Shown: positions 20,685 to 24,101 of the stretch, one piece after another
Layout: each line of letters starts with the position of its first letter
Numbering within the stretch: position 1 is the stretch's first letter
From: Methanotrichaceae archaeon
GTDB taxonomy: Archaea > Halobacteriota > Methanosarcinia > Methanotrichales > Methanotrichaceae
Assembly: GCA_963754945.1 (NCBI GenBank)
Contig: CAVWIG010000036.1
Location: 1 to 36,284 of the forward strand
Reading direction: 5' to 3'
Length of the DNA stretch: 36,284 nucleotides
The notes under the pieces: model-generated
Database searches by the model: none
Seen by the model: only the letters and a program-made list of their open reading frames with translations
Told to the model about the DNA's origin: nothing
Position numbers and translations under genes: made by a program

Positions 20685-21926
20685 ATGACATCCATACTTG
20701 AAACCAGAGATGTAGTCTATTCTTACGGAGACGGAACAAAGGCCCTGAAAGGGGTAAGCATATCCCTCGAGGAGGGCAAAAAAATAGCTCTGGTTGGCCC
20801 AAACGGAGCAGGCAAATCCACTCTAATGCTCATGTTTAACGGCATCCTGCGCCCAAGCGCAGGTGAGGTTCTTTTCCATGGCCAGACCTTGCGATACGAT
20901 TCTGCTTCACTCCGGGAGGTAAGGCGCAAGGTGGGGATGGTCTTTCAGAACTCGGACGACCAGATCTTTGCCCCTTCGGTTTATCAGGACGTGGCCTTCG
21001 GGCCAGTGAACCTAGGCTTTCCCGAAGATAAAGTGAAGAAGTACGCAGATTATGCCCTGCAGTACGTTGGCCTCTCCGGTTACGACCGCCGCCCGCCTCA
21101 CCACCTAAGTGGCGGCGAGAAGAAGAGAGTAGCCATAGCGGGCATCCTGGCCATGGAACCTGAGGTGTTGATTCTGGATGAACCCACCTCTAACCTGGAC
21201 CCAGCCAGCTCTGAGGAGATTATGGATATGCTGGACGAGCTGAACTGCGGAGGAAAGACGGTGATCATCTCCACGCACGATGTGGACTTGGCCTACCGCT
21301 GGGCCGACGAGATCATTCTGATGGAGAACGGCGGGGTGCTTCGCAGGGGTATTGGGCCAGAGGTATTCGGTGACGAGGAGCTGATTAAGAGATCCAGGCT
21401 AAAGCTACCGATAGTGGTGGACCTCTATAAGGAGCTAGTCAGTCGGGATTTGCTAAACGACTCTAGGCCGCCCAGGAACATCCTGGAGCTGACCGATCTC
21501 GTGGAGTCCAGAAACCGAGGGAAGACATCCAGAGGGGCCTTGGGCACTATCCATATCTGCAACGTGGATAAAGCAGGCTCAGAAGAGATCAAGGGCATCC
21601 TGAATAAGTCACACGTAAGTTATACGGGAGCCATGGGAACGAACGCCAAGGTGCTGGCTGATCAAGCCAGGATACCTCTGGACTTCACCTACGGCGTCAT
21701 AGACAAGTGCATCCTCAAGGCTCTGACAGGAAAGAACTCCCTGATAATGACCTCAGGCGGGATGGTGGACCACTCCGTCAAAAGGATTCGGGCCTATTGC
21801 GATGAGTCAGGAGCTAAGATAGAAGTGGTCAAGCTCTCTTCTCTTGCAGAATCTAGCGTAAACTCAGACAGACGGGAGATATTAAGCCAAAAAGAATCCA
21901 TGAAACCGATAGAGGCGGTTCAGTGA
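20685..21926 (+). CDS. cbiO: Cobalt ECF ATPase with extra C-terminal domain
   Basis: [17 protein letters not shown], LDEPT, plus a ~130-aa extension. Confidence 0.93.
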   Translation: [413 protein letters not shown]

Positions 21927-22933
21927 TGTCGCATGAAGGACACATGCACGATGAAGAAAGCCATTGCGGCCATCATCATGTTCATGGAGTCGTAGATCCC
22001 TCCATGCTGGCTACTCAAAAAGGGATCTCGACCGTCAAATGGTCCTTTATTGTGCTGATAGCAACGGCCTTAGTCCAGATGACGGCAGTCTCGTATACAG
22101 GAAGTGTCGCTCTTCTCGCGGATATGATTCACCATTTCGGCGATGCCGCTACTTCTATTCCTCTCTGGATAGCCTTCGCCCTGGCACATCGCAGGCCCAG
22201 CAAACAGTTTACCTACGGTTACGGCCGAGTAGAGGATCTAGCTGGTATGGTCATTGTGCTCCTCATCCTCTTCAGTGTCATTGTTGCCAGTTACGAATCC
22301 ATCAACAGACTTTTTCATCCACAGGTGGTCGATCACCTCTGGGCAGTGGCGCTGGCATCTCTGGTCGGCTTCATCGGCAACGAGGTCGTTGCTTTTTATC
22401 GATGCCGTACAGGGAAAAATATCAACAGTGCTGCTCTGGTCGCTGACGGCTGCCATGCCCGAGTTGACGGCCTGACCAGTCTGGCGGTCTTCCTTGGTGC
22501 CCTTGGTGTCTGGCTTGGCTATCCCTGGGCAGATCCCTTTATCGGAGTCATCATCACCTTTGCCATCCTTGGTATCGTCTGGAGTTCTGTGAAGGTGGTA
22601 TTCTGTCGCCTTATAGACGGAGTGGACCCAGCGGTGGTGGATGAGGTCAAGGAGGCCGCAAGTCATGTTTCAGGCGTGAAGGAGGTCACCAATGTTCGAG
22701 TGAGGTGGCTGGGACACCAGCTTCATGCTGAAATTGACTTGGCTGTGTCCGATGATCTCCCTGTGAAGGAGGGGCACGAGATCGCCAAAGAGGTACAACA
22801 CCAGCTTATGCATCATCTGAGCTACCTTTCCAGAGCCACCATCCACGTCGATCCATTAAGAGCTTCGGGAGAGGAGAATCACCATGTGGGTGAGCACAGC
22901 CATGGATACTTGCCCCCTCACTTGCATCTCTGA
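21926..22933 (+). CDS. Cation diffusion facilitator (CDF) transporter with His-rich termini
   Basis: SVALLADMIHHFGD, YGYGRVEDL, ADGCHARVD, IHVDP. TGATG overlap with cbiO; GTG at 21923 is an alternative start. Confidence 0.93.
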   Translation: MSHEGHMHDEESHCGHHHVHGVVDPSMLATQKGISTVKWSFIVLIATALVQMTAVSYTGSVALLADMIHHFGDAATSIPLWIAFALAHRRPSKQFTYGYGRVEDLAGMVIVLLILFSVIVASYESINRLFHPQVVDHLWAVALASLVGFIGNEVVAFYRCRTGKNINSAALVADGCHARVDGLTSLAVFLGALGVWLGYPWADPFIGVIITFAILGIVWSSVKVVFCRLIDGVDPAVVDEVKEAASHVSGVKEVTNVRVRWLGHQLHAEIDLAVSDDLPVKEGHEIAKEVQHQLMHHLSYLSRATIHVDPLRASGEENHHVGEHSHGYLPPHLHL

Positions 22934-23309
22934 GGTGAAAGGCGTTAAGCATTGCAAAGGCATTAGAGGCTACAAAAGAGGACGAATCCACATTGTCGAA
23001 CGTTGCCATTTTAAGAACGTTATCGTTCGAGTTATGTCAGTGCTAAATAGCTGATTTTTGCATTTGAATTGCTCACATAGACAAACATTTAGAGGACTAT
23101 AAGAAGCACTTTGCAACAGTTATAACCCAACAAAACACCGAAATCTTTAAGTAAAACCTACTTGATTAAAGTAAAGCTAAGTGGAATAATATCTTTATTC
23201 CATGCGTCCAATCAAAACCTGAGGCGGGGTTGGATCTCCGCCTCGGATCTCCTCTTTGTTGGCTACGACAATTCATTTTACGAATCAGAATCCTCGCAGA
23301 TGCTGCCAC

Positions 23310-24101
23310 TCAATCCAAGGCCAAGTCAAACAGCTCATACTTCAACCCTTCTGACTCCAAACGTTCCAGAAGGTTGGGGACTTGCTCATCCACGCCGACA
23401 ATCACCGAGCTTATGCCGTGGTGGGCAGCCTCCACAACAGATCCCTTGGCTCCGAACATCACATCTGGTTCCCTGTCCACCTTTCTCAGTGCCACTAGAG
23501 CTTCGATCCCCAGGGCGCCGACCATCTTATCGCTTGAGATCTTGCGTTTCAGCAGGTCGCTATTGATCTTTCGAGACCCGCCTGCCTGGACTCGTGGCAC
23601 TTTACACACCACGATCTTTCCCGCCTCCAGGCTGACCAGGCCCTTAAGATCCGAAACTCCCACGTCTTCGCCCGCAGTTGCATTGGAGATGGTTATGCCA
23701 CTGGCATCTATGCCTTCTTTCTTATTGGCATAGAGTAGCCCTCCACGCATCTCCAGAGAAACCCTCTCGCCTTCGGCCAAGTCAACTTCCGCCAAAGCCG
23801 TCCATACCGAGACGTGCTCGATTACCTCCTCCATGACCGTCCTAGCATATCGTTTCAGCTCAGTAGCACCTTCTAGAAGCCATTCAACTCCTTCTTTGGT
23901 GACACTGTAGCGTGTGCGGCCATCCGTTGTAACCAGACCGTCTGCAACCAGTTCCCTGACGTAATCAGATATGGCCTGCGTGGTCACTCCCATGCGCTCA
24001 GCCACCTCTTTCTGGCGCAGATTGGGCTGGTGGGCGGCTATCTCGACCAGGATCTGGAAGCGAGAGCTTTCTCGCTTGCTATGGAGGACGTTAACTATCA
24101 T
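23310..24101 (-). CDS. Archaeal winged-HTH (MarR-like, COG1497-type) transcriptional regulator
   Basis: [44 protein letters not shown]. Homology begins at the ATG at 24101, although the frame is open to 24401. Confidence 0.85.
   Translation of the reverse strand: [263 protein letters not shown]

Follow-up and report, generated by a model that had tools for sequence, protein, structure and literature searches.

The window analysed here, 36,284 nucleotides of contig CAVWIG010000036.1 from a Methanotrichaceae archaeon (assembly GCA_963754945.1), contains a cbiMNQO operon for an energy-coupling factor (ECF)-type cobalt importer, followed by a cation diffusion facilitator (CDF) gene and, on the opposite strand, by the gene of a winged helix-turn-helix (wHTH) regulator. 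The ATPase of the importer, CbiO, ends in an additional domain, here called the tail, that is almost certainly homologous to the C-terminal domain of the regulator and forms a divergent subfamily of the Pfam family DUF7839 (PF25211). The best explanation of this pair, which we put forward tentatively, is that DUF7839 is a regulatory domain found both on the CbiO importer and on the regulator. The arrangement hints that the import of cobalt and the expression of genes may respond to a single signal in the cell. The source organism is a Methanothrix-type methanogen; near relatives of its proteins carry the names Methanothrix or Methanotrichaceae.

The resemblance of the two domains had been proposed in an earlier note on this DNA from an alignment made by hand. 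The aligned segments lie where that note placed them: GTIHICNV, a 54-residue block and GAKIEVVKL begin at residues 287, 315 and 376 of CbiO, and their counterparts in the regulator begin at residues 161, 195 and 252, respectively. The ungapped block indeed contains 13 identities in 54 positions. Its BLOSUM62 score of 35 was not attained, in the fixed register, when the block from the regulator was shuffled 20000 times. Compared pairwise by BLASTP, the two tails show no significant similarity (E = 0.31), and the manual alignment is thus no proof of homology. Significant evidence comes from profile–profile comparison, intermediate sequences and Pfam. With hhalign, 43 CbiO-type tails align with a diverse set of regulator tails over 84 columns (probability 95.2%, E = 2.6e-8, score 48.4), and members above the Pfam DUF7839 cut-off were excluded from the CbiO-type alignment. 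In 100 column shuffles of the regulator alignment, the probability reaches at most 2.9% and the score 18.3, and the reversed alignment gives 0.2%. These deeper profiles replaced shallow ones, for which the probability was 39.9%. The CbiO-type and regulator-type subfamilies are ~24% identical in the hhalign alignment.

The Pfam DUF7839 profile matches the regulator with 102.6 bits and residues 291–369 of CbiO with 15.4 bits (E = 0.021), the latter match being collinear with profile positions 12–93 of 101. Applied to the complete 2.97-Mb genome in six-frame translation, the profile finds three places, which are two regulators and the CbiO tail (18.4 bits, E = 0.0055). In both scans the CbiO tail stays under the gathering cut-off of 27 bits, which the regulator passes. 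Intermediate sequences connect the two subfamilies. When residues 280–390 of CbiO were searched with phmmer, a set of 1.84 billion representative proteins yielded 91 matches at E ≤ 1e-3, and a Pfam scan took in 50 of them, 39 mostly short and 11 long. DUF7839 is detected at E ≤ 0.05 in 27 of the 39 mostly short proteins, five of which exceed the cut-off (P0307, 65 bits; P0309, 57.6 bits; P0316, 63.8 bits; P0323, 62.6 bits; P0326, 29.3 bits). The long matches are ABC (ATP-binding cassette) ATPases without exception (11 of 11), two of them with DUF7839 above the cut-off (P0329, 55.5 bits; P0331, 45.3 bits), and one CbiO tail from the family Methanotrichaceae, G225:C44, scores 29.4 bits directly against the Pfam profile. 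The phmmer matches also include stand-alone CbiO-type domains of 95–170 residues. By Pfam and profile evidence both domains belong to DUF7839, and the proposal that an uncharacterised domain occurs both on the ATPase of a cobalt ECF importer and on a transcription factor is borne out.

Both proteins that carry the domain match known classes. CbiO scores 261.8 bits against TIGR01166 (cbiO; cut-off 211.8) and is encoded immediately downstream of cbiMNQ, which identifies it as an ECF-type cobalt ATPase. The NCBIfam models of ECF ATPases stop near residue 255 of CbiO (range 255–277), leaving ~130 extra residues. The wHTH domain of the regulator is of the MarR type (MarR_2, 37.8 bits; cut-off 27). 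The open reading frame (ORF) listed for the regulator, of 363 residues, begins too early; the start is assigned to the methionine codon at position 24101, giving 263 residues, because relatives have 262.

The distribution of the domain was surveyed in 201 genomes of the phylum and 61 genomes of the family. The regulator is encoded in 153 of the phylum genomes, mostly in single copy, and in every one of the 61 family genomes. The CbiO-type tail is found in 68 of the phylum genomes, at about one per genome, and in 54 of the family genomes. It is present throughout the samples of several families (21 of 21 genomes in the sister family and 8 of 8 in another, for instance) and was not found in other sampled families that possess the regulator. 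The tail ends reading frames of 386–726 residues, the named ones of which are cobalt/nickel transport ATP-binding proteins. This distribution, together with the absence of the tail from a second ECF ATPase in the window, shows that the fusion of DUF7839 to CbiO is old, frequent and specific.

The second ECF-type cluster, at 4217–7102 (+), comprises an M-like protein of 238 residues, a 99-residue ORF, a Q-like protein of 315 residues and an ATPase of 276 residues (6272–7102) that has no C-terminal domain; its proteins are 25–38% identical to those of the cbi genes. Beyond the window, the same genome contains a second cbiMNQO operon (G000:C24:~62100–66400), with CbiM 83% and CbiO 66% identical to the proteins described here. 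The cbiO tail of that operon is broken after about residue 345 by a 1.3-kb insertion with an IS5-like transposase (DUF772 and DDE_Tnp_1).

The AlphaFold model of the CbiO tail (34 aligned sequences) has a predicted local distance difference test score (pLDDT) of 92.5 and a predicted template modelling score (pTM) of 0.85. Its elements follow in the order strand–helix–strand–helix–(short strand)–helix–strand–helix–strand, and the domain is predicted to adopt a small five-stranded α/β (Rossmann-like) fold. The model of the full regulator (29 sequences, pLDDT 89.1) comprises a winged helix (residues 1–67), a long helix (69–95), a β domain (99–153) and DUF7839 (163–259). Residues 163–259 of the regulator and the CbiO tail present their strands and helices in the same order, which is the feature by which the two models were compared. 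Similar to the Pfam DUF7839 family, the CbiO tail has the same length and strand/helix order, a G-x-I motif in strand 1 and a GA.G..A loop. It differs from that family in scoring 15–18 bits against the 27-bit cut-off, in having motifs of its own and in residing on an ABC ATPase rather than behind a wHTH domain. A homodimer prediction for the CbiO tail gives a median score of 0.39 against a mark of 0.42.

Structural comparisons of the CbiO tail model with the whole PDB place the N-terminal domains of tetrapyrrole-methylase-fold enzymes in all of the top 17 rows, each of which covers 91–100 of the 111 modelled residues at 5–17% identity. The top rows are CbiL (2e0k; Z = 9.2, root-mean-square deviation 2.8, 97 residues), 8xj3 (Z = 9.2), 2zvc (8.9), 2qbu and 3hh1 (8.2 each), and further rows include CobJ, uroporphyrinogen methylase, CysG, CbiF, CbiE, CobF, diphthine synthases and RsmI-like proteins. 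In a Foldseek search of the PDB, the best match is likewise 3hh1, the N-terminal domain of a tetrapyrrole-methylase-family protein, with no match at E ≤ 1e-3. For this predicted model, the strength of the fold match lies in the uniformity of the list and not in the Z scores. The class III (tetrapyrrole) methyltransferases, exemplified by CbiL and 3hh1, are thus the best structural match (Z = 8.2–9.2 over 93–99 of the 111 residues), but the likeness concerns the N-terminal half of the enzyme only and is one of fold, not of membership. Pfam gives no match to PF00590 (tetrapyrrole methylase) in CbiO, and a sequence search of the PDB with the tail profile returned no match (best E = 0.77). TOBE, MetN C2/NIL, CBS and ACT-like domains are absent from the 50 best structural rows, as are TOBE, NIL and CBS from the Pfam matches; the CbiO tail would resemble TOBE, MetN C2/NIL and CBS domains in function at most, has a different, α/β fold and is not classed with them. 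A structural search with the whole regulator gave wHTH matches for residues 1–96 alone (MarR/PadR chains, Z up to 13.6) and is uninformative on its DUF7839 and β domains.

In the CbiO subfamily, Gly36, Ala37, Met38, Gly39, Lys43, Val59, Ile60 and Met81 (numbering of the modelled piece) are near-invariant; in the model they occupy loops that follow strands 2, 3 and 4, where helices begin. In folds of this kind, such loops are the usual position for binding a nucleotide or cofactor, and we infer that the conserved glycine-rich loops form a putative ligand site. A regulatory role exerted through ligand binding is offered as a tentative proposal. That the ligand is cobalt- or corrinoid-related is doubtful. 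A cofactor-like ligand, such as a cobamide, a tetrapyrrole intermediate, S-adenosylmethionine (SAM) or S-adenosylhomocysteine, or a nucleotide, would, at a guess, fit the predicted fold better than a metal ion.

In the proposed mechanism, two CbiO subunits would sit beneath the membrane parts of the importer, with their tails as cytoplasmic regulatory domains. Sufficiency of cobalt or cobamide would be signalled by a small molecule that binds to the glycine-rich loops, which line the sheet at its C-terminal edge, and the ligand-bound tail would hold the ATPase inactive (trans-inhibition). On the regulator, the same domain would turn a related signal into altered DNA binding. In this family, some of the regulator paralogs have moved next to genes for the uptake of cobalt and corrinoid-type compounds, and these paralogs may use AAGTAAA boxes, which the cbiM promoter contains as well. 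There are precedents for importer ATPases with regulatory tails: in ModBC and MetNI, as described in PMC3971661, the imported substrate binds to regulatory domains at the C terminus, which hold the ATPase domains away from each other. By analogy, the CbiO tail would follow the logic of ModC/ModE and of MetN C2, in which the ATPase of an importer is trans-inhibited through a regulatory domain at its C terminus. Those domains are TOBE/Mop or ACT-like, whereas the CbiO tail is predicted to be α/β and Rossmann-like, and its transporter is of the ECF type. In the molybdate system, the type of domain found on the ATPase also serves as the sensor of the regulator, ModE.

The linkage of cbiO to the regulator gene was examined in the family genomes. 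The usual copy of the regulator gene resides in a fixed cluster of a β-CASP nuclease gene, a gene for a 172-residue wHTH protein, the regulator gene and a helicase gene. In the genome under study this copy lies at G000:C4:5957–7252 (L001/L087; comparison loci L020–L033); the gene for the 172-residue wHTH protein always precedes the usual regulator gene, and the conservation of this gene pair extends to the sister family. Extra copies of the regulator occur in 8 of the 61 genomes, and the regulator of the window is one of these paralogs. All extra copies from the eight genomes were taken in, and a Pfam scan covered 30 of their 59 flanking ORFs and two ORFs of the window. The cbiMNQO–CDF–regulator layout was observed only in this genome and in one close relative, G252. 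A conserved linkage of cbiO and the regulator gene, the lack of which would according to the earlier note weaken the functional coupling, was not found. In G204, a CDF gene is followed by a truncated regulator gene. The remaining paralogs, eight of eight, have a Peripla_BP_2 (BtuF/FhuD-type) or FecCD (BtuC-type) gene within 3.5 kb, and at two of these eight loci a gene for CbiZ, a cobinamide-salvage amidohydrolase, is also present. Genes for Peripla_BP_2-type binding proteins number 41–61 in some genomes and are rare in others: G225 has two in 4.1 Mb, one of them 2.8 kb from a paralog, and G204 has ten, two of them 2.7–2.8 kb from paralogs. None is present in the genome under study. A tree of 25 regulator sequences groups 9 of the 11 paralogs in a single clade (support 94/93) and the other two in a second (100/100), both nested among the usual copies of the family. 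Strict adjacency of cbiO and the regulator gene is not conserved, but the paralog lineage as a whole is tied to cobalt and chelate/corrinoid-type uptake loci.

A further tie is provided by short promoter elements. The AAGTAAA-plus-TATA site of the cbiM promoter is the sole such site in this genome. With at most one mismatch, its 15-mer occurs in 46 of the 61 family genomes, about once per genome, and a coordinate comparison places it 2.6–3.1 kb upstream of a CbiO-tail match on the same strand in 37 genomes, the distance expected for a cbiM promoter. Comparison of k-mers among intergenic regions near paralogs reveals a shared module composed of a BRE-like (B recognition element-like) ACCGAAA, TAAGTAAA, 12 nucleotides and a second (T/A)AAGTAAA box. 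In G204, G213, G224 and G225, this module immediately precedes paralog genes or operons with a small ORF, a response regulator and a paralog. In the window it is located 3′ of the CDF gene and runs into the regulator gene from its 3′ side. AAGTAAA boxes are thus common to the cbiM promoter, several paralog promoters and the module upstream of the structured RNA described below. The paralogs may bind these boxes and are candidates for doing so because several of them are transcribed from such promoters. Promoters near paralogs were also searched de novo for inverted repeats, and none was common to them. In the genome under study, a scan for the double box gave five pattern matches, against 7–19 in shuffles, with the full module in the window match only, so this genome has no double-box regulon beyond the window. 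As a separate observation, a box-plus-TATA site, CAAGAAAACTTTATA, with an TAAGTAAG box upstream, is seen at a contig end (G000:C20:55120–55397, L118); it is followed by the putative N terminus of a transposase. The coupling of transport to transcription proposed in the earlier note is weakened as far as it relied on adjacency. A looser coupling is favoured, because the paralogs adjoin uptake genes and the AAGTAAA boxes are common to the cbiM and paralog promoters.

Several observations weigh against a shared regulatory role. The fold match is middling, Z scores of 7–8 being common even for unmatched models, and an hhalign comparison with the seven TP_methylase domains encoded in the genome itself is not significant (probability ≤ 8.9%), so the resemblance is one of fold only. 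The conserved loops are unlike in the two subfamilies, with GAMGT and TSGGM in CbiO and GxGxEA and no glycine loop in the regulator, which means that the two may bind different things. The regulator family alignment has no invariant His or Cys, and in the alignment of CbiO-type tails no metal-ligand residue is invariant, which makes direct sensing of a metal unlikely. The regulator is nearly universal, including in lineages in which no CbiO tail was found, and its main role need not concern cobalt. CbiO and the regulator are adjacent in 2 of the 61 family genomes only. In five genomes of two other families, the 15-mer of the cbiM promoter was not found near cbiM and was no commoner than a reversed control.

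Alternatively, the tail could be a mere structural or dimerisation module that pairs two CbiO subunits, or two regulator chains, without ligand and without regulation. CbiO is present twice per complex according to the accessible text of PMC7689651, the N terminus of the regulator has a MarR-type fold, and dimerisation is also seen in many domains appended to the C terminus of ABC ATPases, as PMC3971661 states. Conservation, however, peaks in the glycine-rich loops that line the sheet at its C-terminal edge and not on a flat surface; a mere tether would leave the stand-alone domains of 95–170 residues unexplained, and the second ECF ATPase in the window does without a tail. We consider dimerisation alone rather unlikely. 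A switch of partners, the heterodimer of the earlier note, in which the CbiO tail pairs with the regulator tail and the state of the transporter sequesters or releases the regulator as in MalK–MalT, would draw on the homology of the domains, on the presence of both proteins in 54 of 61 family genomes and on their adjacency in the window. It is improbable in view of the ~24% identity of the subfamilies with their differing conserved loops, the rarity of the adjacency and the wider occurrence of the regulator in the phylum (153 versus 68 of 201 genomes).

The uniform match to tetrapyrrole-methylase N-terminal domains could also mean that the tail is an enzyme domain in relic or variant form, corresponding to one half of a methyltransferase-like fold, that is catalytic or handles a cofactor in cobamide synthesis, for example by passing cobalt or a tetrapyrrole to the cobamide pathway. 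The neighbours of the tail in a protein language model (Protein Atlas) are SAM-methyltransferase fragments, but all of their scores (0.81–0.83) are below the meaningful level and serve as leads only. Such an enzyme-like role is highly improbable: only half of a two-domain enzyme fold is present, hhalign detects no sequence relation, the glycine motif that follows strand 1 in the methylases is absent, and the same domain occurs on a DNA-binding protein. A chance resemblance of two small α/β domains without common origin, finally, would fit the BLASTP result and the Pfam score of CbiO under the cut-off, but is scarcely credible beside the intermediate sequences, the profile–profile E value of 2.6e-8 with its clean shuffles and a family member above the Pfam cut-off. 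The preferred reading thus remains a regulatory DUF7839 domain on importer and regulator.

The promoter-like module downstream of the CDF gene is followed by a structured RNA element. Such an RNA follows most copies of the module and consists of a first hairpin, a conserved linker, a long second hairpin and AUCUCC, spanning ~85–105 nucleotides. A covariance model built from 9 copies finds 34 matches in 20 of the 61 family genomes (loci including L088–L117). Among 30 distinct sequences, 89.7% of cells pair, compared with 36–59% when the partners are slid, compensatory changes occur in six of the eight pairs of hairpin 2, and 0 of 500 shuffles attain the observed covariation score, all in an alignment that was fitted to the model. 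The double box, which is not included in the covariance model, precedes 30 of 30 RNA matches examined. By coordinate comparison, 14 of the 20 genomes have an RNA match on the strand of cbiO, shortly 3′ of its tail. The gap measures 47–220 nucleotides in ten of them and 1.3–2.3 kb in four; in the window and in G252, the longer gap contains the CDF gene. The RNA takes one of two positions: it either follows cbiO(–CDF) closely, no ORF lying beyond it, or forms the leader of operons with a small ORF, a response regulator and a regulator paralog. It has no match in Rfam. No Rfam family reaches its gathering score anywhere in the window, in agreement with the earlier remark that the operon has no visible B12 riboswitch. 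The features of the locus are listed in Table 1.

Table 1. Coordinates of the cbi operon, the regulator gene and associated elements in the window
Feature	Position	Strand	Evidence and description
cbiM promoter	18816–18855	+	AAGTAAA box; second AAGTAAA box 25 bp downstream, abutting TATA box (CAAGTAAACTTTATA, 18840–18854)
cbiM	18888–19583	+	Pfam CbiM, 204 bits; membrane part of ECF-type cobalt importer
cbiN	19580–19903	+	Pfam CbiN, 80 bits; membrane part of ECF-type cobalt importer
cbiQ	19896–20678	+	Pfam CbiQ, 154 bits; membrane part of ECF-type cobalt importer
cbiO	20685–21926	+	413 residues: ABC ATPase (1 to ~260; ABC_tran, 115.9 bits), linker, DUF7839-like domain, 29-residue tail
CbiO C-terminal domain (residues 287–384)	21543–21836	+	Divergent DUF7839; motifs GAMGT.AK, YGVIDK, TSGGM
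CDF (metal efflux)	21923–22933	+	Cation_efflux, 148.7 bits; ZT_dimer, 61.6 bits
Promoter-like module	23136–23175	+	CACCGAAA (BRE-like), TAAGTAAA, 12 nucleotides, AAAGTAAA
Structured RNA element	23176–23257	+	Two hairpins, then AUCUCC; model R1, 66.6 bits; points into 3′ end of regulator gene
Regulator paralog, 263 residues	23310–24101	−	DUF7839, 102.6 bits; MarR_2, 37.8 bits; convergent with cbi operon
DUF7839 domain of regulator (last ~100 residues)	23322–23621	−	Pfam and alignment

Similar to the bacterial CbiMNQO systems of Salmonella and Rhodobacter capsulatus, the operon encodes the same four components in the same gene order. The main differences are the ~130 further residues of CbiO and the CDF gene, the start of which overlaps the cbiO stop. 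In the RNA libraries of four peat runs, assembled contigs match parts of cbiO, among them the stretch that encodes the tail, with 99–100% identity in X1 and X4, and one X1 contig covers 23212–23531. Such contigs reveal neither strand nor ends nor transcription, and stretches that they leave uncovered carry no meaning. Divergent from the regulator gene, a ZnuA/ZnuC/ZnuB-type metal ABC importer is encoded at 24741–27240 (+). Its ATPase gene is split over the overlapping frames 25700–26032 and 25875–26453, indicating a frameshift or a sequencing error. Between the regulator gene and znuA, a 107-residue ORF (24517–24840, +) with a Cys-rich C-terminal part overlaps the listed znuA start; a Pfam scan of this ORF gave no match. 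Immediately upstream of the cbi promoter, a secreted protein of 762 residues is encoded at 16127–18415 (+), which has two long internal repeats, a Thr/Ser/Ala-rich tail and a C-terminal membrane anchor.

DUF7839 itself is already described in Pfam, and the ABC–DUF7839 architecture is detectable by Pfam in a few proteins. A literature search, which did not extend to supplements, found no work on DUF7839, COG1497 or a CBL-box, and neither a CbiO tail nor any regulatory domain on an ECF ATPase. CbiO works as a pair under CbiQ/CbiM in the accessible text of PMC7689651, and neither that text nor the available part of PMC2667541 mentions a CbiO tail.

A more specific, and quite doubtful, proposal is that DUF7839 is a protein-based sensor of cobamide or of a cobalt-tetrapyrrole in archaea. 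As such a sensor, DUF7839 on CbiO would shut cobalt import at cobamide sufficiency, and the regulator and its paralogs would control the cbi promoter, the BtuF/BtuC/CbiZ salvage loci and the new leader RNA through the AAGTAAA boxes. The half-methylase fold would then be a relic of a tetrapyrrole-binding ancestor. A comparative genomics study of 2003 reportedly proposed a "hypothetical B12 regulator" of archaea, and the cobamide-sensor proposal, if true, would identify it.

Methanogens require cobamides in large amounts. To our knowledge, archaea are without the B12 riboswitches that regulate cobalt and cobamide supply in bacteria, and we know of little that describes how archaea regulate cobalt uptake and the supply of cobamides. 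A conserved, uncharacterised domain is present on the motor of the cobalt importer in about one-third of the sampled phylum genomes, as well as on a nearly universal regulator. If the regulatory reading is true, the CbiO tail would be the first regulatory tail on an ECF-type transporter within the literature searched. DUF7839 gains its first functional context, and the finding yields a hypothesis that is concrete and cheap to test.

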